Below, piece by piece: positions 16,761 through 50,714 of a stretch of DNA of 64,000 nt. The notes beneath the pieces were generated by a model, which did not search any database, was not told where the DNA came from, and was given only the letters and a program-made list of their open reading frames with translations. The translations under genes and the position numbers were made by a program. The stretch's first letter is position 1. Every line of letters begins with the position of its first letter. Source of the stretch: an uncultured Lachnospiraceae bacterium (GTDB lineage: Bacteria; Bacillota; Clostridia; Lachnospirales; Lachnospiraceae); NCBI GenBank assembly GCA_910578605.1, contig CAJTQG010000007.1, forward strand, positions 1,577 to 65,576, in the 5' to 3' direction.

Positions 16761-18116
16761 ATGACCATCTCAAATGAATTAAAAACTCAAGTGCATGAAC
16801 AAGTAAACCACGTAAAAAGCAAGCTTACTATTTATCATTATCTTCACATGCAATTTATACGTGTTGGTTTTATTGTAGGCATTTTAATGAGTATCTTAGG
16901 AATCTTTGCCATCTATGAAGGGATTAAACTTGCCAAGTTAGATACCACTCACAAGCTTCCCTCTAGCACACGAATCGGCCTATCAATATGTATTATAGCC
17001 GCCTTTGTTATTATATGTATTGTAATCATTGATTTGTTCCTTAGAAAGATTGTCGTCCAAACTCTCAAGCGAATCAATACCCCCATACATATTATGGATG
17101 ACATTATGAGCAAAATTGCCGCCGGAACACTGGACAAAAAATCAAATTATACCTATAAAGATGAATTTAGCGACATGATGACAAACGCTGACAAGGCAAC
17201 TGCTGAGCTGGCCTATTATGTTAATAATATATCGGAAACCCTGCAGGAACTAAGCAATAAAAATATGAATGTTCAGGTGAACCAAGATTATATCGGAGAT
17301 TTTTCAAAAATACAGTCATCTATGCTGAATATTATTGACAGCTTAAATACAACCTTGGGGGAAATCAAGGCAGCATTTTCCCAAGTGAGTGAGGGCGCAA
17401 ACTCTCTAGCCTCCTCCTCCCAGGCTATTGCTGCTGGTGCTGAGCTCCAAGAAAGTCATATTCGCTCTCTCGTTGACAATATTAAACAGATTTCTGATTC
17501 CGTACACAACAATACCATTGCTGCACAGAGCGTAGAAAGGCTTTCTCAGGATTCCATGAAACAAATGTTAGACAGTGAACATAAGATGGATGAATTATCC
17601 AGCGCTATGGATGTTATTCGCAAGGAATCCGATGAAATCGGAAATATTCTCACCCTGATTTCCGGTATTGCAGAGCAGACCAACCTGCTGGCTTTAAACG
17701 CTTCTATAGAAGCAGCCAGGGCAGGAGAACACGGAAAGGGCTTTGCCGTTGTGGCAGGAGAAATTGGAACGCTGGCAAGCTCCAGCGCCCAAGCAACCCA
17801 AGATATTGCTCAGCTGATTCACAGCAGCATGACAGCAGTAGATAACGGTGTTAGCCTATCCCAGGAAACTATTACCATGATTAAGGGCATGACCTCCACC
17901 AACGCCGAAATTTCCGACAGCATCACAGCTATTACAAACCGCAGCAAAAAGCAAGATGAATACTTAAAAAATATGCTGGAATCTGCAGATGAAATATCCG
18001 CCGTTGTTGACCAAAACACTGCTGCTGCTCAGGAAAGCTCCGCCCTTTCAGAAGAATTATTAGAACAGACTGACAGTGTAATGTCTATGATTAACCAATA
18101 TCAATTAAAAGACTAA
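16761..18116 (+). CDS. methyl-accepting chemotaxis protein
   Basis: Two TM segments, a HAMP domain, and the MCP signalling domain ([26 protein letters not shown]). Confidence 0.85.
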
Positions 18117-18989: not shown

Positions 18990-19295
18990 TTATTGTATAT
19001 TTCCTTCCTTACAAATGTACTCATACAATGCCTTTGGCATTTTAAATTCTAACGGTGTCTGCCTGGAATTTCCAATCGCAACATACGTCCCATCTTCGCT
19101 AATACCAAGCATAGCTCTTCCATTATGGAAATCTACCCATATCTCTGCATGCTCCCCCTGGGGTACATTTGCTATTTCCCATGAAATAGAGCACTGTGAT
19201 ACAATATTGGCTATTATTTTCTCATCTTTAATTTCTATTGTATCCTTTCCCTCCTGAGATATACTAATTTTCTCTGGCTTAGGATATTCAAACAT
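18990..19295 (-). CDS. hypothetical protein
   Basis: An RBS (GGGGAGGG) favours the start at MFEYPKPEK; no known motif. Confidence 0.35.
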   Translation of the reverse strand: MFEYPKPEKISISQEGKDTIEIKDEKIIANIVSQCSISWEIANVPQGEHAEIWVDFHNGRAMLGISEDGTYVAIGNSRQTPLEFKMPKALYEYICKEGNIQ

Positions 19296-19740
19296 GCCTG
19301 TTCCCTCCCCGCCTTTTACTCTTTCACTATCAGCTTCTTTATTTTTTTCGATGCCATAAACACCACCCAATGATTCTTATATGTGGGATGGGATGCTAAA
19401 CCTACAATAACAGGACACTTTACATCTATTTTATTTTTAATCTTAGATAATACTTTCTTCGGATCATCTGATCTCAAATAATTTTTTATCCATGAACAGT
19501 ATTAAATTTACAATTATATTTCATATTTTCAATTATAAATTTTACTGACATAGTATACATAACAAACAAATAAAAGCTACAAAGAATTTTATCTTTGTAG
19601 CTGAATCATCTTGGAATATTATCATTATTGATTATATATGTCAACCGCCCTATATCGACATTTTTTTCTAGTTACAATTCTATAAAATTTCCTCTTACTT
19701 TTTATTCATTCAATCACCTGATACAATTTATTTAAATACA

Positions 19741-19781
19741 CAAAAACAAATCCCCCTGTCTGTCACACCAAACAAGGGGAT
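19741..19781 (-). terminator. intrinsic terminator downstream of the che-like operon (after Hpt gene)
   Basis: Minus strand: CCCCUUGUUUGGUGUGACAGACAGGGGG followed by AUUUGUUUUUG. Confidence 0.5.
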
Positions 19782-19837: not shown

Positions 19838-20191
19838 TTATTCCATATACTTTTTAATGCACTGAATAATCTCCTTCTGTACAGGCAGTACCTCCTCAAG
19901 AATTGGCTTTGCTTTCTCCGGCTCTCCAGCCCGCAGTAAGTTTACAATCTCAGTGTAAGCCTTATAAATAGGTGTAATGGAAAGATTTCCCGCTGTTCCC
20001 TTAATAGCATGTGCCTTTTCAATCTCCTGTGCATAATCATTCATATCGAAATCGGGGGATACGCTATGGGTGTCAATTGCCTTCACAAAGGAACCAAGAA
20101 GTCTTTTATACAAGTTCTCATTTCCGCCAAGACGTTTCAAACCATCATCAATATCCACACCTAACGTTTTTAACTCTTCAAACAAAGTCAT
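19838..20191 (-). CDS. Hpt (histidine phosphotransfer) domain protein
   Basis: 117 aa single domain with the HAIKGTAGNLS phosphohistidine motif. Confidence 0.75.
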   Translation of the reverse strand: MTLFEELKTLGVDIDDGLKRLGGNENLYKRLLGSFVKAIDTHSVSPDFDMNDYAQEIEKAHAIKGTAGNLSITPIYKAYTEIVNLLRAGEPEKAKPILEEVLPVQKEIIQCIKKYME

Positions 20192-20210
20192 ATATGGGCA
20201 CCTCCCTTAT

Positions 20211-21560
20211 TTAATATTTTCCAAAATCATCTCCCAATGAAATCACTGGTTCGCTTGAACCGGATGCAGAAGATGGAGAATAGGATGATGTATTATGGTA
20301 TGTGGAACCGCCATTGCTTGTTCCCAAATTGTAAATGGAGAGCATCTCTCTCATTCTAGAAGCCTGGTTGGACAGTTCTTCGCTGGCTGCCGCACATTGT
20401 TCGCTTGTAGCAGAATTGCTCTGAACTACTTGTGAAACTTGTGCAATGGCCTGCTCAATCTGTGATACTGCGGTTGCCTGATAATTAGAGGATTCCGCAA
20501 TGCCATTGATAATTACTTCACTCTCCTGTACTCTGTTTGTAATGGCTTCTAAAGCATGTGCTGTATTATCTACAATCTTAGAACCAGAACCAACCTTTTC
20601 AATAGAATCCTCAATCAATTCTGTTGTCTCTGCTGCTGCAGATGCACTTCTAGCTGCAAGGCTTCTAACCTCCTCTGCCACTACGGCAAAGCCTTTTCCT
20701 GCCTCACCTGCTCTGGCAGCCTCAACTGCTGCATTTAAAGCAAGAATATTTGTCTGGAATGCAATATCATCAATTACTTTAATAATCTTTGAAATACTGT
20801 CAGATGACTTGTTGATATCCTGCATAGCCTTCATCATATCCTGCATCTGCTGATTTCCCATCTTTACGTCATCAATTACTTTAACTACAAGGTTTGCAGC
20901 AGAATTTGCCTGCTCTGCATTCTGTTTTGTCTTCTCTGCAATCTCGTCGATAGATGCGGTAATCTCCTGAATAGCGCTTGCCTGCTCAGTAGAGCCCTGA
21001 GCCAAAGCCTGGCTGGCACTTGCCACCTGTGAAGAGCTGATTGTAACTTGTGAACCTGCATCACTGATATTTGTCAGCGCATTTAAGTTGTCATCCACTA
21101 ATTTCTTTAAGGAATTGCCCAACACATCATCTGCAGACTTTGGAACTACTGTGATAGTCAGATTACCGTTTGACACCTCTTCCGCAATCTTTGCCTGATA
21201 CTTAATGTTGTCAATTACCTTGTTGTACTCATCTACCAAATCACCAAACTCATCATTATTATACTTTACCAAGTCAATGTCTACCTGACCCATAGCAATG
21301 CGCTTTGCAGCATCTGATAACTGAATAACAGCCCTCTCAATTGCCTTGATTAAAAGCACTGCCATCACAATTGTAATGACAGAGCACACTACCATCAATA
21401 CAATTGTAAAAATAGTTGAATTTACTAAATATCTTTCTTGATCTTCTGCCTTCAGTGCGCCTTTTGTTGTGGAATTGCCAAGCAGCACATTGATAATCAT
21501 CAGTAAAATAGGAACCGCAAATCCTATAATCATCTTCGTTTTCATCTTCATGTCTCTCAT
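20211..21560 (-). CDS. methyl-accepting chemotaxis protein
   Basis: TM segments, a HAMP domain, and the MCP signalling domain ([31 protein letters not shown]). Confidence 0.85.
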
Positions 21561-21572
21561 AAATCATACCTC

Positions 21573-22118
21573 TCATTCTTCTATATTACTATCACCTTTC
21601 TGCTCCATTGCAGCAAGCTCCTCGTCATTTAACAACTTATCTGGATCTAACAGCAATTTTACAGAATCACCAACCTTGCCAATACCATATACATATTTGT
21701 TCTGCTGCGATTTTTCACCACGTTTCATAGTAGGAGGCGGCAAAATATCTTCTTCCTGAATCTCAATTACCTCTGCAATTTTTTCCACAATCAGTCCTAC
21801 AACTGTAGATTTTACATCAATAACAATAATACAGGTTCTGTCATTATACTCAAATGGCTCCTGTTTAAAACGCAGACACACATCAATTACAGGAATAACC
21901 TTACCTCTCAGATTAATCAAGCCTTTCATGTAGTCTTCAGTATCAGGAATAGCTGTAATTGCTTGATATTGAATAATCTCACTTACATATTCAATTTTTA
22001 ACCCAAAATATTCATCTCCTGATTTGAATGTCATGTACTTCTCTTTTTGCACATCCTGCTCACCTGAAGATTCCATTTCGTCGTCTGTCTGCTGTAATAA
22101 TTCGATTGTTTCCTCCAT
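21573..22118 (-). CDS. cheW: chemotaxis coupling protein CheW
   Basis: 181 aa CheW-like domain (YMTFKSGDEYFGLKIEYVSEII…LINLRGKVIPVIDV). Confidence 0.85.
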   Translation of the reverse strand: MEETIELLQQTDDEMESSGEQDVQKEKYMTFKSGDEYFGLKIEYVSEIIQYQAITAIPDTEDYMKGLINLRGKVIPVIDVCLRFKQEPFEYNDRTCIIVIDVKSTVVGLIVEKIAEVIEIQEEDILPPPTMKRGEKSQQNKYVYGIGKVGDSVKLLLDPDKLLNDEELAAMEQKGDSNIEE

Positions 22119-22144
22119 ACGCTATACCGTTCCTTTCTATCTGT

Positions 22145-24283
22145 TTAATCAATTAATCCAGCGGCATCTAATATTAAGGCAATACTGCCATCCCCAAGCT
22201 GTGTACATCCTGATAAGCCTTTTACCTTCTTCACATAAGAAGGAATCGGTTTTACAACAATCTCCTGCTCTCCAATCAGTCTGTCAACAAAAAGACAAAT
22301 CTTCTTGTCTTCCACTTCCAGAATCAGCATAATACCATCCTCCACTGATTCCTTATAATCATTCAGACCATACCATTGGCCCAATCTAAGTACAGGGAAA
22401 CATTCTCCGCGGATCATAATATATTCATCTCCGTTTGGCTCATGAATCATCATATCTTCCTTCACGCTGATAAAGGACTGAATCACACCTGTTTCCAATA
22501 CAAAGGAGGAATTTCCTGTCTCCATCACAATACCATCAATAATTGCCAGCGTTAAAGGAATCTTTAAGTTCATTATGCTGCCGCAACCCGGGGTACTCTC
22601 AATGTCCAGCATACCGCCGATTGCCTGAATATTCTGGACAACTACGTCCATTCCTACGCCTCTTCCTGAATACTCTGTAATCTGTTCATTCGTAGAAAAT
22701 CCAGGTAAGGTAATAAATTGATATACTTCCTTGTCTGTGTAAGCAGATTCCGGTTTGCTCTCATCCAATATTCCCTGCTTCTTTGCCTTGGCAAGAATCT
22801 TCTCCCTGTCAAGTCCTGTTCCGTTATCCTCCACACTAATCCAAACCTTGCCTGCCTCAGTTCTAGCAGAGAGAACCACCTTACCTTTTTCTCTCTTGCC
22901 GCTAGCAGCACGCTCTTCATTTGTTTCAATACCATGATCAACAGCATTACGAACCAAATGCATAAGCGGATCGGAAATATGTTCAATAATATTCTTATCC
23001 ACCTCTGTCTGTTCCCCAACCATCTCAAATTCAATGTCCTTGCCCAATTTTCTGGACACATCAAAAACAATACGGTTCATTTTCTGGAACGTATTTGTCA
23101 AAGGAACCATTCTCATGGACATAATAACATTTTGTAAGTCAGTGGATATTTTTGATAACTGAGCAGCCGCTTTGTTAAAGCTGTTTAAGTTCAGTCCCGG
23201 AACCTTTAAATCCGGATTCTGCAGAACAACCGACTCAGCGATAACCAATTCTCCAATTAAATCCATTAACTGATCCATTTTTGTGACATTCACGCTGATA
23301 AAGGAAGCTTTTTCTGCCTTTGGCTTATCTCTTGCCAGCTTTTTCTGCTTACCTGGCTCTTTGGATTTAATCACAAAATCACCAGGGGCTATTTTCTTTT
23401 CGCCTGCTTCCTTGTTCTCTTTATTGTCCTGATCAGAGGCCTCACTGGCTTTTTCCTCTGTCTCTACATTACTTGCTGCTGCTGGAGCATCCTCATTTTC
23501 TCCATTGAAATCAAAGCCCTGAAGGAACTCCTCCGCCTTACACTCATAAACATCTACCTTATCAATTACATAGCTTTCTCCAATTATCTTGCGTACCTCT
23601 TCCTCATTGCACTGTGCCTGCAAAAGAATCTTAAAGCCCTCATCCACAATTACCTGTGCATTTGACTCATCCGAAATAATATCCTCGGGATAGTACAATA
23701 AATCCTCCGCAATCTCCTTTAATGCATACACCACTTTATAGGCATGCACGTTAGCCATTTCCGTCTCTGGGAAAAAGCTGATATAAATTTTATAAAAGCG
23801 GCTGGCGCTGGTGGCAACAGGCGCAATATAAAATTGCTTCGGCTCCTCATGCACATTCTCCGGCTGCTCTTCACCACCCTTAATCTTATCTAGAAACTTA
23901 TCCAGACCTTTAATCAATTTTTTCGGGTCACCGTCTACCGGATCGCCGTTGCGAATCTTCTCCATCTCATTTGATATAAAATCCTCTACCTCCAACACAT
24001 GCTCCACCAATTCCATATGCGGCACATTATCAGGTTGGGATTCCCTCAAAAAATAAAAGACATCTTCCAGCTTATGGGATATAGCCGTTATGTTATCGAA
24101 CATCATAATACCTGATGAACCTTTAATTGTGTGCATTGTTCTAAAGATTTCATTGATGCTGTCTTCGTCAAAGCAGTCAGCATCCTTCTGCTCCAAAACC
24201 ATTTCCTGAAGCTGTTCAAGTAATTGCTCGTTCTCAAACAAATATATATCTAGCATGTCTTCTGTATTAAATCCTTCAGCCAT
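22145..24283 (-). CDS. cheA: chemotaxis histidine kinase CheA
   Basis: P1 Hpt (HTIKGSSG), a dimerisation domain, HATPase motifs (DNGTGLD, GRGVGMDVV), and a C-terminal CheW-like P5 domain. Confidence 0.9.
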   Translation of the reverse strand: MAEGFNTEDMLDIYLFENEQLLEQLQEMVLEQKDADCFDEDSINEIFRTMHTIKGSSGIMMFDNITAISHKLEDVFYFLRESQPDNVPHMELVEHVLEVEDFISNEMEKIRNGDPVDGDPKKLIKGLDKFLDKIKGGEEQPENVHEEPKQFYIAPVATSASRFYKIYISFFPETEMANVHAYKVVYALKEIAEDLLYYPEDIISDESNAQVIVDEGFKILLQAQCNEEEVRKIIGESYVIDKVDVYECKAEEFLQGFDFNGENEDAPAAASNVETEEKASEASDQDNKENKEAGEKKIAPGDFVIKSKEPGKQKKLARDKPKAEKASFISVNVTKMDQLMDLIGELVIAESVVLQNPDLKVPGLNLNSFNKAAAQLSKISTDLQNVIMSMRMVPLTNTFQKMNRIVFDVSRKLGKDIEFEMVGEQTEVDKNIIEHISDPLMHLVRNAVDHGIETNEERAASGKREKGKVVLSARTEAGKVWISVEDNGTGLDREKILAKAKKQGILDESKPESAYTDKEVYQFITLPGFSTNEQITEYSGRGVGMDVVVQNIQAIGGMLDIESTPGCGSIMNLKIPLTLAIIDGIVMETGNSSFVLETGVIQSFISVKEDMMIHEPNGDEYIMIRGECFPVLRLGQWYGLNDYKESVEDGIMLILEVEDKKICLFVDRLIGEQEIVVKPIPSYVKKVKGLSGCTQLGDGSIALILDAAGLID

Positions 24284-24319
24284 ATCATTCTCCTTTCCTG
24301 CATATTGTTCAATCTTTTG

Positions 24320-24712
24320 TTATATCAATTGCAGTTTCTTCAATGCTTGCTCAAACTTATCCTGGTCAATCGGTTTGCCGGAATAAATAGTACATCCCAG
24401 CTCAAATGCCATCTTCACATTTTTTTCCTCATTGAGAGCAGTTGTCATAATTACCTTTACTGCCTTATCCTCAGGAATATTTCTATCCTTTTCTAAGTTG
24501 CGGATACCTACCAGTGCCTGATATCCATCCATGACCGGCATCATAATATCAAGACATACCAGGTCGTAAGGTTCTTCATCTTCCAAAGCCATCATAAATG
24601 CGTCCACTGCTTCCATTCCGTCCACAGTAACATCACATTCGCCATACTTTGACAAGAAATTTACCATAAATTTTCTTGTTGCAAAATCATCTTCTGCTAA
24701 TAGAATCTTCAT
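24320..24712 (-). CDS. cheY: CheY-like single-domain response regulator
   Basis: 130 aa receiver domain with the phospho-acceptor context LDIMMPVMDG. Confidence 0.85.
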   Translation of the reverse strand: MKILLAEDDFATRKFMVNFLSKYGECDVTVDGMEAVDAFMMALEDEEPYDLVCLDIMMPVMDGYQALVGIRNLEKDRNIPEDKAVKVIMTTALNEEKNVKMAFELGCTIYSGKPIDQDKFEQALKKLQLI

Positions 24713-24726
24713 ACATTTGATCTCCT

Positions 24727-25755
24727 TTACATTTTATTTAATAATGCGTATGTTCTCTTTGCAATATCGGACAATTTCTCCTGATATTCCACCGCACCAA
24801 GGTCATAAGCCACCTTCGGCATACCATACACGACACAGGTAGATTCATCCTGTCCTATGGTTCTGGCCCCTGCCTTTCTCATTGCCAGAAGCCCCTTTCC
24901 TCCATCTCCTCCCATTCCCGTAAGAATAATTCCTACTGCATCTGAACCTGCCGCCTTGGCAACAGAGTGAAATAATACATCCACCGAAGGACAATGTCCA
25001 TTTACCTTGCCCTCCTTCCTGCATTCCACCTGATACCCTCCATTCACCTTTACAAGATGCATTTGAGTATCTCCTCCTGGTGCTAAAAGCAGTTCTCCTG
25101 GCATCACTCTATCTCCGGTTTTTGCCTCCTTTGCCTTAATTCGGCATTGGTCATTGAGCCTCTTGGCATACATGGCTGTAAAGCCTGCCGGCATATGCTG
25201 CACCACAACAATCCCTGGTACATCCGGCCCAAATCGCTTAACCACATCAAAGATTGCCTCTGTTCCTCCTGTTGATGCGCCAATGGCAATCAGCAAATTC
25301 TTTTTGTTTTCCAGCACATGCTGATTTTCCTGCAGCATAGTAGAATTTTTAATGTTGCCGACTTTTGCAGCAGAGGCAATTTTAATCTTTACCAGCAGTT
25401 CATTTTTTATGAAATCCTCCAACTGCCCCCTGCTTGATATAGCAGGCTTTGCCACAAAATCAACCGCCCCTGCATTTAAGGCGTCAAACACCTTGTCGCT
25501 GAGAGCGCTGATGACCACTACAGGAAGTGGATATTGAGGCATCAGCTTACGCAGAAATTCAATTCCATTCATTCTTGGAAGCTCCACATCCAATGTCATT
25601 ACATCCGGCTTATATTGTACAATGGCATCTCTTGCCTCAAAAGGATCTTTGGCTGTGGCTACAACCTGTATCGAAGGATCTTTATTAAGATTTTGAACCA
25701 ACAATTCCCGAAACACAATGGAATCTTCCACAACCAGCACCCTGATTGTCTTCAT
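24727..25755 (-). CDS. cheB: protein-glutamate methylesterase CheB (REC plus methylesterase)
   Basis: N-terminal receiver domain and a C-terminal CheB methylesterase domain (GASTGGTEA…, HMPAGFT). Confidence 0.9.
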   Translation of the reverse strand: MKTIRVLVVEDSIVFRELLVQNLNKDPSIQVVATAKDPFEARDAIVQYKPDVMTLDVELPRMNGIEFLRKLMPQYPLPVVVISALSDKVFDALNAGAVDFVAKPAISSRGQLEDFIKNELLVKIKIASAAKVGNIKNSTMLQENQHVLENKKNLLIAIGASTGGTEAIFDVVKRFGPDVPGIVVVQHMPAGFTAMYAKRLNDQCRIKAKEAKTGDRVMPGELLLAPGGDTQMHLVKVNGGYQVECRKEGKVNGHCPSVDVLFHSVAKAAGSDAVGIILTGMGGDGGKGLLAMRKAGARTIGQDESTCVVYGMPKVAYDLGAVEYQEKLSDIAKRTYALLNKM

Positions 25756-25774
25756 ATTTTATCATTCCCTTCCT

Positions 25775-26581
25775 TTATTTCCTGAATATTGACGGTTGAA
25801 TAATCTGAAACGGGGTACTGCCTCTGTCAAGTGTCTCGGTTGTTCCTATAAACAGATAACCACCAGGCTCTAAGTAATCATACACCTTTTGAACCAGCTC
25901 TCGTTTTGTCTTATCATCAAAGTATATCATAACATTTCTCAAAAATATTGTATGCATTTTTCTCCTAAACGGAAAATCATCCATCAAGTTAAACTGGCGA
26001 AAAAGAACTTCTTTTTTTAATTTTTCTTTCACTCTATACTGTTTTCCCCCAGCCATTTTATCAAAAAACCGCTTTAACCATTGCTCCGGAACACTTTTAA
26101 GCTGGTCTGCATTGTAAATGCCTAAGGTTGCCTTCTGAAGCACCTGAGTAGATATATCGGTTGCCAGAACCTTTGTATCCCACTGGTCATGCTCCATGCC
26201 AAAGAAATCCATTAAAACCATAGCAATCATATATGGCTCTTCCCCCGAAGAGGCAGCGCCACACCAGATTCTCAAGTCCTTTTTTGCGCTTTCCCTTTTC
26301 TTCAACTCCGGCAGCACCACTTTCTTAAAATATTCCAAATGTTCAAATTCTCTCATAAAAAAAGTATGATTTGTCGTTAGCTGATTCACCAGCATTCTCT
26401 CCAACTCACCGGTGGTATCCTGCTCCATCGCATCCATGTAGGCATTGAAGTCCTTCCAGTGTCCTGCCTTAATGCGATTTTCCAATCGGCCGTTTACAAT
26501 TACTTTCTTTTCACTTAAGTCAATACCATATTTTCTTTTCATATAAACTGATATTCTCAAAAATTCTTCATCGGTTATCAC
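25775..26581 (-). CDS. cheR: chemotaxis protein methyltransferase CheR
   Basis: CheR N-terminal domain plus a SAM-dependent methyltransferase domain (TTNHTFFMRE…RIWCGAASSGEEPY). Confidence 0.85.
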   Translation of the reverse strand: MITDEEFLRISVYMKRKYGIDLSEKKVIVNGRLENRIKAGHWKDFNAYMDAMEQDTTGELERMLVNQLTTNHTFFMREFEHLEYFKKVVLPELKKRESAKKDLRIWCGAASSGEEPYMIAMVLMDFFGMEHDQWDTKVLATDISTQVLQKATLGIYNADQLKSVPEQWLKRFFDKMAGGKQYRVKEKLKKEVLFRQFNLMDDFPFRRKMHTIFLRNVMIYFDDKTKRELVQKVYDYLEPGGYLFIGTTETLDRGSTPFQIIQPSIFRK

Positions 26582-26622
26582 AGCTTTTTCCTCCTGAAAA
26601 AAATATACCTTTTCGTGTCTAA

Positions 26623-27684
26623 TCAGCTTAATTGACGTGATATTTTACAGCAAATTTCAAAAATATCGGGATTTAACATGACACCTGCATACTCTCTCAT
26701 ACTCTCAAGTGTCTGTTCCCTATCCCTTCCACTCTCCTCTCTCATGCTGCCATACAGCTCCGCAACAGAGACAATCTGTGCTGCAAGAGGAATCTCCTCT
26801 CCCTTTAGACCAGACGGATAGCCGCTTCCGTCCCATTTTTCATGATGATGCTGCACAATATCAATAGAGGTACTTATAAAATCATTATAATCATTGCTGG
26901 CATTCAAGTCCTTTAATATTTTTGCACCAATACTAGTATGACCTTGAACGATTTCCAATTCCTTGTCACTTAGAACCTTACCTTCCTGGAGAAGCTCTTT
27001 GGGTACCCCTATATTTCCAATATCACACAGGGGGGCCGCCAACTCTATTGTATCCACAAAAGTATCGGAAACCTTACCCTCAAACAGAGGTGACAGCTGC
27101 ATTCCTTGCGCTAATATTTTGCAATTGTGTCCTAGCCGCCTCAAATGTTCTTTTTTATTATCCGAATCCTGCACTGCTATATTCGCCAAAGCATACAATA
27201 TATTCTTTTTTTCCTGTTCCATCTGTTTAAGCTGTTCCGTGACGGAAATCTGAAGACGCCGGTTCGTTTGCATCAAATCCCTCTTCGCTTCATGAAGGCG
27301 AAGGTGAACACCAACACGAGCCTTTACCACCTCAGAAATAAAGGGCTTCGTAATATAATCCTCGCCTCCGATAAAAAAACCTTCCACTATATCTTCCGGA
27401 TTATCATATGCGGAAATAAAGACTACAGGAATATTTTTTGTTTCTTCCTTGCCCTTAAGAATTTTGCAAAGCTCATATCCATCCATTCCCGGCATAGATA
27501 TGTCCGTCAAAATCAACTGGGGGCAACAGTCCTTCAACATCTCTAGCGCTTGTTCCCCGCTCTCTGCCAAAATAGGACAATAACCCATATTTTTTATGAT
27601 TTCCTCCAAAACCAGACGGTTGGTTTCCACATCGTCTATAATCAAAATATTTTCATTATGGTTCATCTGCTCCTCATAAAGCAT
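26623..27684 (-). CDS. response regulator with HD-GYP c-di-GMP phosphodiesterase domain
   Basis: Receiver domain (LTDISMPGMDG) plus HD-GYP (HHEKWDGSGYP). Confidence 0.85.
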   Translation of the reverse strand: MLYEEQMNHNENILIIDDVETNRLVLEEIIKNMGYCPILAESGEQALEMLKDCCPQLILTDISMPGMDGYELCKILKGKEETKNIPVVFISAYDNPEDIVEGFFIGGEDYITKPFISEVVKARVGVHLRLHEAKRDLMQTNRRLQISVTEQLKQMEQEKKNILYALANIAVQDSDNKKEHLRRLGHNCKILAQGMQLSPLFEGKVSDTFVDTIELAAPLCDIGNIGVPKELLQEGKVLSDKELEIVQGHTSIGAKILKDLNASNDYNDFISTSIDIVQHHHEKWDGSGYPSGLKGEEIPLAAQIVSVAELYGSMREESGRDREQTLESMREYAGVMLNPDIFEICCKISRQLS

Positions 27685-27703
27685 CCCTGCACCTCCTTCC
27701 CAA

Positions 27704-29125
27704 CTACAGCAAATCGTTCAAGCCGTTATATTCTGCAATAACCTTGTCATAATTTGCCTTCTGAATTGCCATTTTCAAACGTAAAACCTTTCGTCCCACA
27801 TCCTGGGGTGCTCCCTGGGTTAACTGTTTTACAATTTCCATAAACATCTCCGCTTTTTCCCAATTATCCATCTCCACGCAGAGAATGAGTTTTGACAAAT
27901 TCCTTTTAAGATTTTCCATATTTTTAGGTGAGCCGTAGGTCTTTACATCCCCCGACTCGCCGCCATCTAAATCAGCAGATGCGAATAAATAGGAGGGGGC
28001 TTTCACATCATTGTCCTGAGAAGAGGAATTTTCCTCCTCCTCACATTGACCAACCCATATAGAGAAGGAGAAGGAGCTTCCTCTATTCTTCTCGCTCTCC
28101 ACTTCAATATTGCCGCCCATCAATTCCACCAACTGCTTGCATATATTTAAGCCAAGGCCGGTTCCTCCATATTTTCTGGAGATGGAGGCATCCACCTGGG
28201 AAAAGCTTTGAAACAGCTTATCTTTATCCGCCTTGTCAATTCCTATTCCTGTATCTGTAACTATAAAAAACAATTCCACTTTATCATTCACCCTGGCTGT
28301 CTTCACAACTTCAAGGGTGATTTTGCCCAAAGATGTAAATTTTTGTGCATTTGAGAGCAGATTGTTAAGAATCTGTACAATCCGCAGTTCATCTCCAATG
28401 ATATGCTCTGGCACTTGGGGGGATACTGTCATAAAAAAATCCAAGCCTTTTTCTGTCATTCTGTTAATATGTTGAGACTTTACATAGTCAAGCATATTTC
28501 TAAAATGAAACTTCCGAGGCTCCAAAGTGAATTTGCCGGCTTCCAGCTTGGAAAAATCCAGAATATTATTGATGATTTTGTTCATATCACCGCAGCAGCG
28601 CTCTATAATCTGCAGCACTTTTACTGCCTGCTCCTGCAAATCCGCATCCTGCAATTCCCTCACATGTCCAAGTATACCGTTGACCGGTGTACGCAGCTCA
28701 TGTGTCACATTGGCAACAAACTCAGACTTAACCTTCAATGCCTGCTGCGCCTCCTGCCTTACCTGCTCCACTTCCCTGCTCAAATACTCTTTTTCTAATA
28801 TATCATTTGCCATGCATATATAAATCTGTGAGTCTGGGTTTTCAACAATCCTTGCCTCCACCGGAAAACAAGTCATATTTTTGCGATAAGCCGAAAGGCT
28901 GTGCACTTCACTTCCAAAGGGATAATCTGTCTGAAGACCCTCATGTGAGACCTTAAACATATTAGGAAAAACCTCACTGATATTTCTGCCCTGCAGATTA
29001 TTTTCATATTCTAATTTTTTTAATGCCGCCCCATTGGCATAGGTTATTTCTCCGGTATGATCAAATACCAGAATCATCTCCAATGCATCCTCAATAGGAA
29101 ACACAAAATTTTCCATATGTTCCAT
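27704..29125 (-). CDS. PAS-domain sensor histidine kinase (no receiver)
   Basis: PAS domain, HisKA H-box (THELRTPVNGILG), HATPase domain (GTGLGL), and a ~100 aa C-terminal extension. An RBS (GGAGG) favours the start at MEHMENF. Confidence 0.8.
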   Translation of the reverse strand: MEHMENFVFPIEDALEMILVFDHTGEITYANGAALKKLEYENNLQGRNISEVFPNMFKVSHEGLQTDYPFGSEVHSLSAYRKNMTCFPVEARIVENPDSQIYICMANDILEKEYLSREVEQVRQEAQQALKVKSEFVANVTHELRTPVNGILGHVRELQDADLQEQAVKVLQIIERCCGDMNKIINNILDFSKLEAGKFTLEPRKFHFRNMLDYVKSQHINRMTEKGLDFFMTVSPQVPEHIIGDELRIVQILNNLLSNAQKFTSLGKITLEVVKTARVNDKVELFFIVTDTGIGIDKADKDKLFQSFSQVDASISRKYGGTGLGLNICKQLVELMGGNIEVESEKNRGSSFSFSIWVGQCEEEENSSSQDNDVKAPSYLFASADLDGGESGDVKTYGSPKNMENLKRNLSKLILCVEMDNWEKAEMFMEIVKQLTQGAPQDVGRKVLRLKMAIQKANYDKVIAEYNGLNDLL

Positions 29126-29305
29126 ATTATTCCTCCAAAACAAAAGCAGGCAATGCCAAAGTGCCATAAAAGTTTTTCTTATACAAGAAAGAATCCTGCT
29201 TTGCAGGATTCTCCGCCTGCGGCGGGTCCAAACTTTCCTATACAGTGAAAAAAGGCAGCAAAAGCATATTTGGTTCTTTGCTGCCCTATTGCCTATTTTA
29301 AAACA

Positions 29306-30397
29306 TTACGAAAAACTAAACATCTTAATCACTTCAACAATGTTAAAGAAATCTTCCTTTGCCAATGCGAAGCACTCAAGCACATCCGGTGAAAATTGTC
29401 CACACTCGCCTTTCATAATCATATCATATGCTATATCGTTAGCATATGCACTTTTGTATACTCTTGGACTAACCAATGCATCATAAACATCTGCAATAGC
29501 AACAATCTGAGCGCTGATTGGGATTTCATCTCCCACCAGATGATCTGGATAACCGTTTCCATCCCATCTCTCATGATGGTGCCGGCATATATCATAACAA
29601 TAACGATAAAATTCATCATCCTGATGCTCTTGGAACTTTTCTAATATTTCACATCCAAGTGTTGTATGAGTCTTCATCGTCTCAAACTCTTCCTCTGTCA
29701 GGCGTCCCGGCTTCAACAAAATGGCATCCGGTATTCCAATTTTACCCACATCATGAAGAGCTGCCGCTCTGGCTATCTCATCTACCTGAACATCTGTCAA
29801 ACCATACTTAGGGAAATACTTCACAAGATACTTTAACATAATTCTTGTAAAATATTTAATCCTCTTAATGTGATCTCCAGTTTCTAGATTTCTAAATTCT
29901 ACTACAGAGCTGAGAGCGTCAATCATAAATTCATTATTCTCACGAATCTTCTTCTCCTGCTCTCTGATTTCCTGTTCCTGCTCTTTTAATCGAATCTCCA
30001 TATTGCGCTTATTTTGATAAAGCTCCATAATATTTCTGCTTCTCTTGCGCACAATATGCGGATAGAAAGGCTTATGTATTACATCCGCCACCCCATACTT
30101 ATATGCCTTTTCCTCACTGTCTAAAACTGTCTCTCCAGTGACAATGATTACTGGAATCTTCTCCAGCAAATCGTGTTCTTTCATATACTCCAACACTTGA
30201 AAGCCATCAACAATAGGCATTACAATATCCAACAATATCAGTGCAATATCAGGATTATTCTCAATGCAAGAAATTGCTTCCTGACCATCTGCTGCCTCCA
30301 GCGTTTCAAACTTATCCTGAAATGCCACGTTGAGCACTGCACGATTGATGTCTTCATCATCCACAATTAATATGTACTGCTTATCCATTGCCATCAC
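29306..30397 (-). CDS. response regulator with HD-GYP c-di-GMP phosphodiesterase domain
   Basis: Receiver domain (LLDIVMPIVDG) plus HD-GYP (HHERWDGNGYP). It is the first gene of the operon. Confidence 0.85.
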   Translation of the reverse strand: MMAMDKQYILIVDDEDINRAVLNVAFQDKFETLEAADGQEAISCIENNPDIALILLDIVMPIVDGFQVLEYMKEHDLLEKIPVIIVTGETVLDSEEKAYKYGVADVIHKPFYPHIVRKRSRNIMELYQNKRNMEIRLKEQEQEIREQEKKIRENNEFMIDALSSVVEFRNLETGDHIKRIKYFTRIMLKYLVKYFPKYGLTDVQVDEIARAAALHDVGKIGIPDAILLKPGRLTEEEFETMKTHTTLGCEILEKFQEHQDDEFYRYCYDICRHHHERWDGNGYPDHLVGDEIPISAQIVAIADVYDALVSPRVYKSAYANDIAYDMIMKGECGQFSPDVLECFALAKEDFFNIVEVIKMFSFS

Positions 30398-30837
30398 CTA
30401 AATTATCCTTTTTGCAATTAAAATTTAACGATACAAATATACCACCTTTCCAATTCAATGTCAATACACAAACTTTTGAAAACACAAGCGAATATCCCCC
30501 TTTTGTCCCTTCCATTTTGTGGAATCCCAAACAAATGACATCTCATTTTCAAGGATGGCTTTTAGAATTATTTTAAAGCAAAATATATCCTGTTTTTGTA
30601 TAGATTTTACAACAGCAACTGACATTTTCCTAAACATATGCTAAAATACATATGCTCACATAATGAAGTCCATCAGAATTTATATGAAGCTGTTTTAAAT
30701 TCTATTTTATATTTATCCATTTATTACAATTTATAAATAAATATATTCAGTATCACTTATTAAGAATTGACATGCCCTTATAGCTGCACATCTTTTAGTC
30801 AAGCATAACAGATACAGGAACGAAAGGAAAATTCTAT

Positions 30838-33191: not shown

Positions 33192-34433
33192 TTATCCCTT
33201 TACAACGCCAACCGTTTTCAGCTTGCGTATGGGGGTAACCAAATCTTTTTGCTGCTCCATTACCATATCTATATCCTTGTAGGCAAATCTACATTCCTCT
33301 GCCACGTCATTTTTCTTATGCTTTCCTAGTACAATTCCCTGCTCCTTCAAATCCACCATCACCTGCTCTGTTGTAAACGCAGCCATGGCGCCGCTTCTTG
33401 AGTAATTTCTTCCTGCTCCGTGAGAGGATGTGCAGAAGGTTTCAGGATTCCCCTTACCCTTCACCACATAGCTGTAGGAGCCCATAGCGCCTGGAATCAC
33501 AGCCAACTCCCCTTCTCTTACTCTTGTGGCACCCTTGCGGTGCACCCACACATTTTCCCCATAGTGATTTTCTATGGCGGCGTAATTGTGATGGCAATTG
33601 ATTTCACTGTTAAATTCTACAGTAATGTCCGTAAACTTTTCAATTTGCGTTTTTACCACATCACACACTGCCTCCAGCATACTTGCTCTGTTCTCAAAAG
33701 CATAATCCATTGCCAACTGCATCCAATTCACATATTGCCTTCCCTGGGGCATATTGATTGGCAGGAATGCCAATCTGTAAGTTTCCGGCACACTGCTGTA
33801 CCAAATGTTATTTAACTCTCTTGCCATTTTATGAAAGTAATCACAGATTTCCTTACCTAGGTGGCGGCTTCCCGAATGAATCATAATACATAAATAACCA
33901 TCCTCATCCTCCTGCAATTCGATAAAATGATTGCCCCCGCCAAGAGTACCTACTTGATAATAGCCCTCGTCAATCAAATGAAGAAGCTCCTGATTTGTCT
34001 CATACTTATCCATTTCCTTCTTTGCCAGGTCTAGGACTTTAGACACCTGAGGCTGCTTATGCTTCATAGTGCCAACAGGAACCGCCCGCATAATGGCGCC
34101 TACAATGGACTGAATCATCGTTCCGTTTCCTGTCTGAATATCTTTGATTTCCTCTACCTTCACATTGGTTGCGGCAAAAACCATTCCGCATCCAATATCC
34201 ACTCCAACCGCATTGGGAATAATGACATCCTTAGCGGCGATTACACCGCCGATTGGCATTCCCTTTCCTGCGTGGGTATCCGGCATTAAACATACCCATT
34301 TATGTATAAAGGGAAGATTTGCTAAATGGTACGCCTGTTCTAGACAATTTTCTTCCAAATCACTTTTTTCCTTCAACCACACCTTCACCGGAAATTTTGT
34401 ATTTTCATCATATAAAACAAACATCACATCCAC
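33192..34433 (-). CDS. rtcB: RNA-splicing ligase RtcB
   Basis: PDTHAGKG, GGGNHF, HNYA and SSHGAGR metal-binding and active-site motifs; 413 aa. Confidence 0.85.
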   Translation of the reverse strand: MDVMFVLYDENTKFPVKVWLKEKSDLEENCLEQAYHLANLPFIHKWVCLMPDTHAGKGMPIGGVIAAKDVIIPNAVGVDIGCGMVFAATNVKVEEIKDIQTGNGTMIQSIVGAIMRAVPVGTMKHKQPQVSKVLDLAKKEMDKYETNQELLHLIDEGYYQVGTLGGGNHFIELQEDEDGYLCIMIHSGSRHLGKEICDYFHKMARELNNIWYSSVPETYRLAFLPINMPQGRQYVNWMQLAMDYAFENRASMLEAVCDVVKTQIEKFTDITVEFNSEINCHHNYAAIENHYGENVWVHRKGATRVREGELAVIPGAMGSYSYVVKGKGNPETFCTSSHGAGRNYSRSGAMAAFTTEQVMVDLKEQGIVLGKHKKNDVAEECRFAYKDIDMVMEQQKDLVTPIRKLKTVGVVKG

Positions 34434-34454: not shown

Positions 34455-34560
34455 TTTAAATGTTTGCGAAACTCCTTCGAAAAAGTTCATAATTGTGCAA
34501 AATTTACAATTTTTGTTAGATGCAATTCGGTTTGTGTTTTAGAAGTTCTTAGTGTTCTTT
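34455..34560. repeat. ~110 bp repeat (copy A), shared with 50715-50830, containing palindrome AATTGTgcaaaatttACAATT
   Basis: aaaagttcataattgtgc[a/g]aaatttacaattt…ttagatgc…gttcttagt[g/a]ttcttt is conserved between the two loci. Both copies lie just 5' of minus-strand gene starts. Confidence 0.5.
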
Positions 34561-34701
34561 ACTTAACATAGCAATATTTGCACACGAGGGGCAAATAAGA
34601 TGACAATTGAGCCATGGAGGGCGAATTGGCATCGGTTGCGTGCTCTTCCAATCAATATGATAAGAACACTTAGTACTTCTTAGACACAATTAGATGCATC
34701 T
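34518..34701. mobile_element. MITE-like element / IS terminal inverted repeat remnant
   Basis: Imperfect ~42 bp inverted repeats (ttagatgca…taagaagt.cttagtgttctt) flank a ~100 bp core with no ORF. Confidence 0.35.
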
Positions 34702-35101
34702 AATGAAATTAGTAAATTTGTACAATACAAAACTAAAAATAATGAGTTTCGCAATTACCTATATTTATATTTTTAAGTTTGTTGATTTTGTTATATTTGT
34801 TTTTTATTTTTATTTGCTTTTTTGTTTTTGTTACATTAACGTTATCCGCTTTATGAATTTTATGAATTAATTCTAATTGATGTGTTTTCTTATGTATGCA
34901 TTATATGGCATCATCTGGAAAATATCATTTCAAAAAAGTTGCGAACTCTTATCTTTGCAAATTTATTTTAATTTAGGATACAATGTTAAAACTTCAAAGT
35001 TTTGAAAGATATGAGTGCTACAATATACTAGAACATTTCTTTTATTTATGATACTCTATATAATGATTTTTAATCTCTTTAAAATAGAAAGGAACACTGC
35101 C

Positions 35102-36376
35102 ATGTCCGAATTTAAAGAATTGGTCAAAAGTTTTGCTAAATCAAGAGAATATGTTCGTGATTTTTTTGTATATGGTTTTAAAACAAGAGAAGATTTTAAC
35201 AGGAAAAGCACACGAACCTATGACAACGAGCGACGCCGAATTGAATGCTGGCTTCAAGGCTTTGTAAAACAAGACTACACTAAAAAAGGAAAAAATATTT
35301 CCCTGGCCATAGACAGCAACCTGCTTGACACAAACCCTCTGTTTCGTGTCTGGAAAACGAAAAGCTTTACTGATAATGATTTGATATTGCACTTTACCCT
35401 TCTTGATTATCTAGCCCAAAACCCCTGCTGCAGTGCGGAAATGCTGACAGATGCACTGAACCTAAAATATAACCTTCTCTTTGATGTGCAGACTGTGCGC
35501 CGCAAATGCAACGCATATGTAAAGGAAGGTATTTTTATTAAGACAAAGCAAGGTAAAGAAATAAAGTATTCTGCCGCCAAAGATTTTACTCCTCTATTTC
35601 ACCGCTATCCCGCTTTCAGGCAGGCAATTACTTTTTATCAACTAGCCGAACCACTGGGTATTATAGGAAATACTATTATGGATAACTTCTCTATGGATAA
35701 CTTTTCCTTTCGGGTAAAGCACAGCTTTTTTGTTCACACCTTAGAGGATGAAGTTTTGTTGGAACTGCTGCATGCTATGCATTCTAAAGAAAGCATTTCC
35801 TTGGAGCTTTGCAGCACGAAGAACCAAAACAAAAGCACCCGCACTTGTATTCCCCTGCAGATATTTACAAGCACCCGCACAGGCAGACGTTTTTTGTGTG
35901 CATATCAGCCCAAATCCAAACGTTTTAACTGTATCCGCATAGATTCCATCAAAAACGTAACTCCCCTCCCCCCTGACTCACAGGAAAACAAAGATTTTTC
36001 ACGATTATGGGACGAACACCAAAGTAATCTCATAAAAAACCATCCTTATATATGGGGCGTTTCCTTTCAAAATACAGACAAAACTCACCTTCAACATGTA
36101 AAACTTACTCTTCGCATCAGGGAACCGGAGGAACATTATATAATGGAGCGATTAATAAGGGAGGGCAAAGATGGCATTATCACCTGCATTGCCCCCAATA
36201 CATACACCTACGAAAAAGATATTTTTGATGCCAATGAAATGCTGCCATGGCTTCGCACATTCATAGGCAGAATTGTGAATTTTACTTGCAGCTCCCCTGT
36301 GGTGGAGAGACGATTCTTTCAGGATTTACAAAAAATGTATGATATGTATGATATTAAAAATGCATTTAGGGACTAA
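35102..36376 (+). CDS. WYL-domain transcriptional regulator (wHTH plus WYL plus WCX-like C-terminus)
   Basis: A wHTH-like region (LLDYLAQNPCCSAEMLTDALNLKYNLLFDVQTVRRKCNAYVKEGI) precedes a WYL-like core (RTGRRFLCAYQPKSKRFNCIRIDSI). RBS AAAGGA lies before the ATG at 35102. Confidence 0.5.
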   Translation: MSEFKELVKSFAKSREYVRDFFVYGFKTREDFNRKSTRTYDNERRRIECWLQGFVKQDYTKKGKNISLAIDSNLLDTNPLFRVWKTKSFTDNDLILHFTLLDYLAQNPCCSAEMLTDALNLKYNLLFDVQTVRRKCNAYVKEGIFIKTKQGKEIKYSAAKDFTPLFHRYPAFRQAITFYQLAEPLGIIGNTIMDNFSMDNFSFRVKHSFFVHTLEDEVLLELLHAMHSKESISLELCSTKNQNKSTRTCIPLQIFTSTRTGRRFLCAYQPKSKRFNCIRIDSIKNVTPLPPDSQENKDFSRLWDEHQSNLIKNHPYIWGVSFQNTDKTHLQHVKLTLRIREPEEHYIMERLIREGKDGIITCIAPNTYTYEKDIFDANEMLPWLRTFIGRIVNFTCSSPVVERRFFQDLQKMYDMYDIKNAFRD

Positions 36377-36490
36377 TATTTTGTGAATATTCATTGTCAA
36401 ACATGAAACAATGTGTTAAAAAGGTAATTGTAACAAAGCTTAAGCAACAAGATGGGATATTATTATATCGCATGCTTATTTGTGATAGGA

Positions 36491-37477
36491 ATGGATATCA
36501 ATATGAATTTATTTAGCGAAACATACAATTGTTATTATCAGATTATGAAGGAAATTTTAAAGGATAAATCTTCTTTTACCCTGGATGAGCTGAGAACAAA
36601 AATCAGCTGCCATGGCTTCGAGGAAAGTCTGCTCTATATAATACCTAAGCTTTCCTCAGGGGAATGGAGCCTCCTTAAAAAAAACGGAGAACTTTACTGC
36701 ACTAAGTTGTCTGGCAGTTTTTATGTTCCTTTAACTACACTGCAAAAATCCTACCTGAAAACTATTTTACAAGACAAAAAAATGCAGCTTTTTCTTGATG
36801 AGCCAAGCATAACAAATCTTACAACAATGCTGAAAGATGTACCCACATTGTGGGACAACGACACCTTTTACTACTATGACCGCTACAGTGACGGAGATGA
36901 TTTTACGGCTCCTGCTTATAAAAAACATTTCCGCATGCTGCTTGCCGCTATTGAACAAAAGCGTTTTGTAGATATAGACTATACCTCCCCCTCACGGAAT
37001 CGGGTACACCATCACTACCTGCCATGCCGTTTAGAATACTCTATTAAAAACAATAAGTTTCGGCTTTTGGCAAAAACTCTCCCCCTGCACAAAGGTGGGT
37101 TGGAGACTTTAAACTTAGAGAGAATGACAAAGGTAGAGTTCTTAGACCAGTTTGCCGAAAACACCGTAGACTTAAATCAATTGATTCGTTCCTCCTATTA
37201 TAAGGAGCCTGTCTGTCTTCATATATATAATGAGAGAAATGCATTAGAGAGAACAATGCTTCACTTTGCAAATTATGAAAAAAATACTACTAAAATAGGG
37301 GATAATTTATATGAATGTCTGATTTATTATAATAAAATGATGGAAACCGAACTGTTGATAGAGGTGTTGTCCTTCGGACCGATGCTGAAGGTGCTTGGCA
37401 GCGAACATTTCCTAAAACAAATAAAAGGAAGACTTTACAGACAAAATCGCCTGGAATGCCTTCCTAATCACACATAA
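36491..37477 (+). CDS. WYL-domain protein (paralogous partner, WYL plus WCX-like)
   Basis: WYL-like core (YLPCRLEYSIKNNKFRLLAKTLP…LNLERMTKVEFL) plus a C-terminal WCX-like region. Confidence 0.45.
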   Translation: MDINMNLFSETYNCYYQIMKEILKDKSSFTLDELRTKISCHGFEESLLYIIPKLSSGEWSLLKKNGELYCTKLSGSFYVPLTTLQKSYLKTILQDKKMQLFLDEPSITNLTTMLKDVPTLWDNDTFYYYDRYSDGDDFTAPAYKKHFRMLLAAIEQKRFVDIDYTSPSRNRVHHHYLPCRLEYSIKNNKFRLLAKTLPLHKGGLETLNLERMTKVEFLDQFAENTVDLNQLIRSSYYKEPVCLHIYNERNALERTMLHFANYEKNTTKIGDNLYECLIYYNKMMETELLIEVLSFGPMLKVLGSEHFLKQIKGRLYRQNRLECLPNHT

Positions 37478-50683: not shown

Positions 50684-50714
50684 GGCTCTTCTTTCCTTTC
50701 CCTGTTTCTTTGTT

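Follow-up and report, generated by a model that had tools for sequence, protein, structure and literature searches.

Control of cyclic di-GMP (c-di-GMP), a second messenger, by chemosensory pathways is known only as synthesis, in Wsp, and from the type IV pilus-associated (TFP) class. In the Wsp system of Pseudomonas, of the alternative cellular function (ACF) type, the genes of a che-like core (MCP, CheW, a CheA-type kinase, CheR and CheB) accompany that of a c-di-GMP enzyme under receiver control, WspR, in which a receiver domain (REC) is joined to GGDEF. In RpfC/RpfG of Xanthomonas, a hybrid kinase with REC and Hpt parts passes its phosphate to a REC-HD-GYP protein. Here we describe a ten-gene locus of an uncultured Lachnospiraceae bacterium (assembly GCA_910578605.1, contig CAJTQG010000007.1) that attaches two REC-HD-GYP genes, a further kinase gene and an Hpt gene to a chemosensory core. 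It lies in a stretch of 64,000 nucleotides (nt), hereafter the window, whose numbering is used throughout.

As read from its sequence, the locus encodes a complete, methylation-adapting core, apparently F-class, together with a soluble PAS kinase, an Hpt protein, and one complete and one decayed REC-HD-GYP regulator. The ten open reading frames (ORFs) span 19838-30397, all in the same direction on the minus strand, as the original prediction had it. All its domain calls held in a Pfam check, in which no REC domain was found in g2:

g1, 29306..30397, minus strand: REC-HD-GYP protein (Pfam REC and HD_5) with a full catalytic site, likely an active c-di-GMP phosphodiesterase by Pfam, PDB alignment and conservation
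g2, 27704..29125, minus strand: soluble PAS-HisKA-HATPase kinase (Pfam PAS, HisKA and HATPase_c) with a BarA/TorS-type core and no receiver; start at M15, after GGAGGA
g3, 26623..27684, minus strand: REC with a degenerate HD-GYP domain ('CD-GYP'; Pfam REC and HD_5), probable pseudoenzyme
g4, 25775..26581, minus strand: CheR methyltransferase (Pfam, NCBIfam)
g5, 24727..25755, minus strand: CheB, REC and methylesterase (Pfam, NCBIfam)
g6, 24320..24712, minus strand: divergent single-domain CheY-like receiver (Pfam, single REC)
g7, 22145..24283, minus strand: CheA, P1-P5, without receiver (Pfam Hpt, P2, dimerisation, HATPase and CheW)
g8, 21573..22118, minus strand: CheW
g9, 20211..21560, minus strand: methyl-accepting chemotaxis protein (MCP) with two transmembrane segments, a loop of ~21 residues, HAMP, a signalling domain of the 36-heptad (36H) type, a Ser/Gly linker and a C-terminal DFGKY pentapeptide-like tether (Pfam HAMP and MCPsignal)
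g10, 19838..20191, minus strand: free Hpt of 117 residues, motif H(A/T)(I/L)KG conserved, in the type A position

The intergenic gaps are short, 12-41 nt where 15-45 nt had been predicted, with the exception of g1-g2. There, 138 nt separate g1 from the first ATG of g2 and 180 nt from M15 (29125), the start in the public gene call, which follows a ribosome-binding site, and the spacer holds hairpin and U-run elements.

The proposed analogy with Wsp goes as far as an adapting core joined to a c-di-GMP enzyme. In contrast to Wsp, the predicted output of the locus is degradative (HD-GYP), its CheA is non-hybrid with a P2 domain, its receptor is of the 36H type with a tether, and its host is a Firmicute. 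Of the two hallmarks of ACF/Wsp systems, a hybrid CheA-REC and a REC-GGDEF protein, neither was found: g7 has no REC, and no GGDEF domain occurs in the scanned ORFs of the window. The PAS kinase, the free Hpt, the probable pseudo-HD-GYP protein and the single-domain CheY-like protein are additions relative to Wsp.

With RpfC/RpfG the locus shares an HD-GYP regulator seemingly fed by a His-Asp-His-Asp relay, and a kinase core, in g2, of the same hybrid type. Two related loci (L050 and L068, described below) encode a hybrid kinase, an Hpt and a REC-HD-GYP protein side by side. The difference is that kinase core, receiver and Hpt are split here, that no genes for synthesis of diffusible signal factor are present, and that the relay lies inside a che operon.

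The ancestral (stage 1-2) F7 systems, Che2/Aer2 of P. aeruginosa and cluster III of V. cholerae, have a 36H receptor, their own cheY by cheA-cheW, cheR and cheB, as does our locus; their output is thought not to concern motility (PMC7184735). The locus differs from them in lacking CheD, STAS and serine-phosphatase genes, in a transmembrane receptor with one HAMP domain rather than PAS-HAMP repeats, in the attached HD-GYP, Hpt and kinase genes, and in a host from Lachnospiraceae, not Proteobacteria; its receptor type suggests F7.

In P. aeruginosa, the non-catalytic REC-'YN-GYP' protein PA2572 acts with the MCP PA2573, and its gene adjoins a kinase gene (PMC3411652). PA2571-PA2572-PA2573 thus resembles the locus in combining a receiver and a degenerate HD-GYP domain with an MCP and a kinase, and YN variants occur among the nearest representatives of g3. 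It has no CheA, CheW, CheR or CheB, its HD dyad has become YN rather than CD, and its MCP binds the REC directly. Both in M. xanthus Che3/CrdSA (PMC3147164) and in R. centenum CheA3/CheS3 (PMC3868531), CheA is reported to act jointly with a second kinase on how far a single regulator is phosphorylated. These systems share with ours a second histidine kinase inside a chemosensory cluster; their outputs are an NtrC-type transcription factor or cyst formation rather than a nucleotide phosphodiesterase, and they are not known to have a free Hpt or a pseudoenzyme paralogue.

A review of c-di-GMP sensing names no classes other than ACF and TFP that modulate c-di-GMP (PMC8846402), and in the literature consulted no description of a chemosensory cluster with HD-GYP output was found. 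The combination of a chemosensory core with one probably working and one crippled HD-GYP regulator and an extra kinase and Hpt is not known to have been characterised.

The cluster and its variants in Lachnospiraceae

We scanned one genome per species with CheA, kept the best 80 of 532 relatives and compared the 78 best loci. Their CheA identity is 78-84%, and all come from one family-level Lachnospiraceae clade; Acetatifactor muris DSM 23669 (L020) and A. aquisgranensis DSM 110981 (L046) are among them. Because g1-g9 are colinear in 59 of these 78 loci of related species, the arrangement of the cluster is far beyond chance. Four further loci keep g2-g9 but have g1 elsewhere, cut off or not at all (in L079, g1 is absent and g2-g9 are retained), two have cheA-cheW-mcp duplicated, and the rest are truncated contigs. 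Protein identities across loci are 58-84%, with 82-95% for the CheY-like g6. No gene of the cluster is better conserved than g6, whose mean identity of 92% compares with 81% for CheA and 65-74% for the majority of the rest.

The duplication of cheA-cheW-mcp, in L004 and L012 (9997-18900), is in tandem, with a lone cheY-like gene before the second cheA and no Hpt within 10 kb.

The Hpt gene changes place between relatives. In 31 loci it is of type A and lies 3' of the MCP gene, as in the window; in 23 it is of a diverged type B, directly upstream of g1; nine loci, about half of them truncated, have none. A hybrid kinase of ~850 residues is encoded directly after Hpt-A in 16 of 33 type-A loci (L006, L007, L009, L018, L028, L033, L034, L042, L053, L063, L065, L069, L070, L071, L075 and L077), and after the MCP gene in L032 and L036. 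It consists of an N-terminal region of ~330 residues without Pfam match, followed by HisKA, HATPase and two RECs.

In L050 and L068, g1 is relocated downstream of the MCP gene, where it remains less than 2 kb away, and the type-B Hpt moves along with it. The relocated modules (L050, 11203-17106; L068, 14287-20078) comprise the type-B Hpt, g1, a paralogue of g6 that is 86-87% identical to g6 of the same genome, and a 1183-residue HisKA-HATPase-REC-REC hybrid kinase. Judged by these domains, each module amounts to a complete His-Asp-His-Asp relay that ends on g1 and contains a g6-type receiver. A 70-residue remnant of g1 is left at the ancestral site in L050 (around nt 712).

From the relocated modules and the hybrid-kinase variants we infer that Hpt and g1 belong together at the end of a His-Asp-His-Asp relay, and that the g6-type receiver belongs to the Hpt/g1 relay and to CheA alike.

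Homologue searches with CheA and with the CheY-like protein were filled up by orthologues with 82% identity or more and gave no distant genomic contexts. The locus is very abundant in gut metagenomes, single variants of the CheY-like protein occurring on more than 600 contigs.

HD-GYP regulators, extra kinase and chemosensory core

The original prediction held both REC-HD-GYP proteins to be c-di-GMP phosphodiesterases. Their motifs, HHEKWDGSGYP and HHERWDGNGYP, are indeed intact, and HHExxDGxGYP is conserved in the families of both g1 and g3. Both proteins match PF13487 (HD_5), with 98.9 bits for g1 and 86.9 bits for g3, and both receivers retain the phospho-acceptor Asp, the Thr/Ser and the Lys. 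However, only g1 possesses all metal-binding residues, on which the prediction had made its enzymatic assignment depend.

In g1, every metal ligand aligns with PDB entries 4r8z (PA4781) and 4mcw (PmGH), at E ~1e-35. The ligand set (E...H, HD, H, HH, D) is complete and invariant in 63 orthologues, and the D/T/K of the REC domain are invariant in 63 sequences. We consider g1 a plausible enzyme and likely an active c-di-GMP phosphodiesterase.

In the metal site of g3, the ligand Glu is replaced by Asn, the HD dyad by CD, the Lys of HDxGK by Asn and the last Asp by Glu; H249, HHE and DGxGYP are kept. In terms of the PmGH site, the ligands left in g3 (D, H, HH) would match a single metal position. 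The ligand set is broken throughout the family (n = 68): in 67 of 68 orthologues Cys replaces the His of HD, Tyr, Phe or Asn stands in place of the Glu, the Lys is Asn in 62, and the first His is His in 43 and Tyr in 21. The position of the last Asp is occupied by eight different residues (E30, D8, N7, S7, Q6, A4, G3, M3). The 150 nearest cluster representatives from a library of 1.84 billion proteins include 107 with HD and 5 with CD, besides 1 CN, 3 YD and 2 YN, so the CD forms make up a small derived branch.

The two families are also conserved in opposite ways. In g1 conservation is highest in the HD-GYP domain (80% identity; REC, 65%); in g3 it is lowest there (59%; REC, 72%). The protein g3 is probably a receiver-controlled pseudoenzyme, and 'two phosphodiesterases' is unsupported, since its metal site is degenerate despite an intact HHExWDGxGYP.

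Among NCBIfam models, the core of g2 fits BarA best (296.7 bits), then TorS (264.8 bits), LuxQ, RcsC and ArcB. All these scores fall under the full-length cut-offs, the REC and Hpt parts being missing. Its HisKA-HATPase core is of the hybrid-kinase type, with neither an attached receiver nor a His-containing Hpt, which bears out the predicted PAS kinase without receiver. What the prediction missed is a conserved C-terminal segment of 75 residues (residues 413-487 of the long ORF; window 27704-27928, minus strand), placed after a poorly conserved low-complexity linker. AlphaFold models it as a four-helix bundle (pLDDT 82); its consensus, LSKLILCVEMeNWEKAEMFM...LrLKMAiQK, has no conserved His. 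In Foldseek, Hpt proteins rank first for this bundle at non-significant values (TM-score 0.64, E = 0.12-0.7), no better than cytochrome c'/PsbQ. By sequence, an Hpt assignment of the tail obtains a profile-profile probability of 0.3% and was kept only as a possibility. The modelled bundle may be a degenerate Hpt remnant of an unorthodox kinase. Unlike in unorthodox kinases, receiver and Hpt are encoded by separate genes, g6 and g10.

The stand-alone Hpt g10 scores 20.3 bits against the Pfam Hpt model (PF01627), under the cut-off of 24.6 bits; type-B Hpt scores 50.7 bits. The profile of the g10 family matches that of CheA P1 with 94% probability (E = 1e-7), with the phospho-His aligned. The phospho-His of H-x-x-K-G is the consensus residue, found in 90% of sequences or more, among the 33 type-A and the 24 type-B Hpts alike. 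By these profiles g10 is a genuine Hpt, as predicted.

The receptor g9 aligns with E. coli Tsr (residues 113-413 with 223-518, E = 3e-49) without gaps in the signalling domain, small indels being confined to the HAMP region; against the T. maritima MCP (2ch7) it reaches 1e-20 only. Among NCBIfam models it scores highest with Vibrio Aer2, followed by Tar, Tsr and Trg. Both the alignment to Tsr and the family models place g9 with 36H receptors, which are the signature of the F7 class (PMC9321776, PMC7184735). Methylation-type EQ/QE motifs can be read off its sequence. It ends in a variable Ser/Gly linker followed by xFGKY, of which FGKY is kept in nearly all of 74 sequences, and this end is reminiscent of the aromatic pentapeptide to which CheR and CheB are tethered. 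CheA (g7) scores 331 bits against E. coli CheA and 308 bits against Thermotoga CheA, PDB and NCBIfam scores that do not discriminate its class. CheC, CheD, CheV, CheX and CheZ are all missing from the locus. Given the 36H receptor with its C-terminal tether, a CheA with P2 and without receiver, and the presence of CheR and CheB, the chemosensory core looks F-class (F7-like), not Wsp/ACF-type.

Against a cut-off of 189 bits, the CheY-like g6 reaches 33.6 bits with the E. coli CheY model; with Thermotoga CheY it reaches ~40 bits. Its best PDB matches are Sln1-type hybrid-kinase receivers, at 45.6 bits versus 40 for CheYs. We rejected a hybrid-kinase-type assignment as weak: the Sln1-type lead is only ~5 bits and NCBIfam is non-committal.

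A second MCP gene lies outside the operon:

orphan MCP, 16761..18116, plus strand: two transmembrane segments, HAMP_2, Tsr-like signalling domain nearly gap-free against Tsr

It is 1.7 kb from the operon and could supply extra input to the same CheA. As none of the 77 other loci has it in this place, and it is thus syntenic in none, we rejected it as a member of the conserved module.

Transcription of the cluster

The following signals frame the operon and its g1-g2 spacer:

promoter-like site, 30436..30464, minus strand: TTGACA-17-TATATT with TG, sigma-A-type, ~40 nt upstream of g1
first hairpin, 29248..29286, minus strand: GGGCAGCAAAG...CUUUUGCUGCC followed by U6, 20 nt past the g1 stop; terminator or attenuator
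second hairpin with U-rich tail, 29184..29213, minus strand: in the g1-g2 spacer
terminator-like site, 19740..19781, minus strand: 13-bp stem and T-run, 57 nt past the g10 stop, the strongest of the region

The promoter-like site has 11 of 12 consensus matches, the best in 18.8-31 kb, as judged by match to consensus alone. The first hairpin folds with z = -3.6. A hairpin with U-run follows g1 in 51 of 63 loci, and the stem is retained in ~60 of 64 unique sequences. Few compensatory changes are seen in the stem, which is conserved mostly as sequence; the putative structure is backed by conservation and the U-run, not by covariation. The second hairpin was seen in the window's own contig (L001), the multi-locus scan having kept the single best hairpin per locus.

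No convincing sigma-A site for g2 was found in the g1-g2 spacer. In many relatives this spacer is only 55-120 nt long, and in many it has just 55-85 nt, its U-run leading straight into the ribosome-binding site of g2; being so short, it leaves no room for a g2 promoter, and g2-g10 therefore seem to need read-through from g1. The likeliest reading is one operon in which an internal partial terminator sets g1 above g2-g10, with g1 partly insulated from them by the conserved terminator-like hairpin.

Between the operon terminator and spoVT lies a small ORF (18990-19370, minus strand) of 126 residues, 101 in the public call, without Pfam match. It has promoter-like and terminator-like sites of its own (19616-19644, 19575-19602).

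Proposed phosphate routes and c-di-GMP in the host

We tentatively read the locus as a phosphorelay hub with several inputs, through which c-di-GMP hydrolysis is set. A multi-input relay, 'branched' in the wording of the original prediction, remains the most economical reading of the cluster. Phosphoryl groups from CheA~P and g2~P, and also from the hybrid kinase that many relatives encode beside the Hpt, would enter a shared receiver pool (g6, g1-REC and g3-REC), whose members a reversible Hpt shuttle would connect. Phosphorylation of the g1 receiver would gate the g1 HD-GYP domain and hence the cellular level of c-di-GMP, which c-di-GMP-I riboswitches such as the three of the window would read out. 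The protein g3 would act as a phospho-sink or a regulatory partner of g1, with no c-di-GMP hydrolysis of its own. The conserved hairpin after g1 would permit its expression above that of g2-g10, and g6 might have an extra target of its own, possibly the flagellar motor.

The hub is suggested by the linkage of g1-g9 in 59 of 78 loci; by the Hpt gene, which is found now with the che unit, now with the g1 unit, and moves with g1 in L050 and L068; by the relay modules of these two loci and the hybrid kinases of others; by a g2 core that is hybrid-kinase-like without REC; by a g6 that matches motor-type CheYs poorly; by the constraint on HD-GYP, tighter than on REC in g1 and the opposite in g3; and by the riboswitches of the window. 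RpfC/RpfG, M. xanthus Che3/CrdSA and R. centenum CheA3/CheS3 serve as precedents. A fuller version, possible but doubtful, is that an F7-type array converts gut chemical gradients to c-di-GMP and not, or not only, to motor steering. Phosphate would then pass from CheA~P to g6, by reverse Asp-to-His transfer to Hpt, and on to g1, buffered by the pseudo-HD-GYP g3 and joined by one or two further kinases, with riboswitches controlling large surface proteins.

Several points weigh against the hub. We infer every transfer step, that from CheA to the HD-GYP receivers included, from gene linkage and precedents; the sampling is from one clade, so that part of the synteny is shared ancestry. At least five complete loci have no Hpt within 10 kb, making Hpt not obligatory in cis, and the hybrid kinase is missing from the window, as from A. 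muris (L020) and A. aquisgranensis (L046). Hybrid-kinase receivers match g6 only marginally better than CheYs do. A core with F-class features and a Tsr-like orphan MCP nearby is as expected of a taxis system, and flagella are described for the sister genus Waltera (bioRxiv 10.1101/2025.02.21.639485). Adjacent pairs (g2-g3, Hpt-g1, CheA-g6/CheB) would give three insulated paths, and HD-GYP enzymes can also act on 3'3'-cGAMP.

The taxis features could mean that the locus is an ordinary flagellar chemotaxis operon with a separate two-component module co-transcribed. CheA would then serve only g6, as the motor CheY, and CheB, g2 and the Hpt relay would run g3 and g1 independently, and co-transcription would merely co-express motility control and c-di-GMP turnover. 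We regard this main rival as rather unlikely, though it would explain much: a CheA with P2 and without REC, cheY directly upstream of cheA, the tethered 36H receptor with its full adaptation enzymes, the orphan MCP and the reported flagellation of the sister genus. The 92% conservation of g6 fits a protein with many partners, and cognate partners are usually adjacent, as are g2-g3 and Hpt-g1. It fits poorly with a g6 scoring only 33-40 bits against the E. coli and Thermotoga CheYs, with a g6 paralogue beside a hybrid kinase, Hpt and g1 and away from any CheA, with the missing CheC, CheD, CheV, CheX and CheZ, and with the alternating position of Hpt. Nor were flagellar or motor genes found, in line with the original prediction, among the ORFs of at least 150 residues scanned in the 64-kb window (a scan that left out small ORFs and a few at 62-64 kb and gave no GGDEF or PilZ gene either) or in the inspected gene calls (~10-kb flanks, window's own contig). 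The prediction had taken this flagella-free neighbourhood as a sign of a non-motility function. That does not follow, because Waltera is described as flagellated: a flagellar role for the chemosensory core, with a motor target of g6 included, may still apply.

A looser arrangement would be three insulated pathways co-located by descent, from the che core to the target of g6, from g2 to g3, and from hybrid kinase and Hpt to g1, coupled by shared regulation only. The conserved terminator-like hairpin does set g1 apart, g1 has moved in L050 and L068 or is absent in L079 while g2-g9 are kept, and the Hpt and hybrid-kinase content varies among genomes, all of one clade. Such insulation nevertheless appears improbable, given spacers of 12-41 nt from g2 to Hpt, the seeming dependence of g2-g10 on read-through from g1, a relocated g1 that still lies less than 2 kb from an MCP gene, and a g6 paralogue within the g1 module.

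The same architecture might also act on another cyclic dinucleotide, such as 3'3'-cGAMP, or mainly on pGpG. The substrate range of HD-GYP enzymes is reported to vary (PMC3774798), and V. cholerae V-cGAP3 (PDB 5z7c, E = 1e-25) is among the HD-GYP matches of g1. We find this highly improbable: the best matches are the c-di-GMP phosphodiesterases 4r8z and 4mcw, nothing in the window was recognised as a CD-NTase or cGAMP signalling gene, and Rfam detects three c-di-GMP-I riboswitch aptamers there (70.5, 48.5 and 61.9 bits; gathering score 35):

tandem c-di-GMP-I riboswitches, 3495-3591 and 3807-3910, minus strand: upstream of a large secreted ORF
third c-di-GMP-I riboswitch, 50875-50963, minus strand: upstream of a CBM_2 protein (49205-50728)

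These riboswitches make c-di-GMP an active messenger in the host, with local readers, and they are candidate downstream readers of the c-di-GMP set by the hub. The ORF directly downstream of the tandem pair (1-3390, minus strand) is open at the window start and exceeds 1130 residues; it has an N-terminal signal-like segment and, near the window edge, an RHS/YD-like 'DPxG' core motif. The other scanned ORFs of the window include sporulation and housekeeping genes (spoVT, yabPQ, spoIIE, tilS, ftsH, rtcB), transporters and cell-wall genes. A TwoAYGGAY RNA motif (34527-34694, plus strand, 97.7 bits) lies between rtcB (33192-34433, minus strand) and two WYL-domain genes (35015-37477, plus strand).

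If phosphate does pass from CheA through Hpt to g1, action via c-di-GMP degradation would be shown for a chemosensory pathway for the first time, and g1 would be the first output identified among non-enteric F7-like systems. The parts list is compact, cultured type strains (A. muris DSM 23669 and A. aquisgranensis DSM 110981) account for at least two of the 78 loci, and the natural variants in Hpt position, hybrid kinase content and CheA copy number are ready-made perturbations. With a probably active and a degenerate HD-GYP regulator paired, the locus also offers a clean system for asking what role HD-GYP pseudoenzymes play. Should the che core turn out to serve flagellar taxis, the locus would still be a case of taxis and c-di-GMP hard-wired to joint control in gut commensals that produce flagellin.

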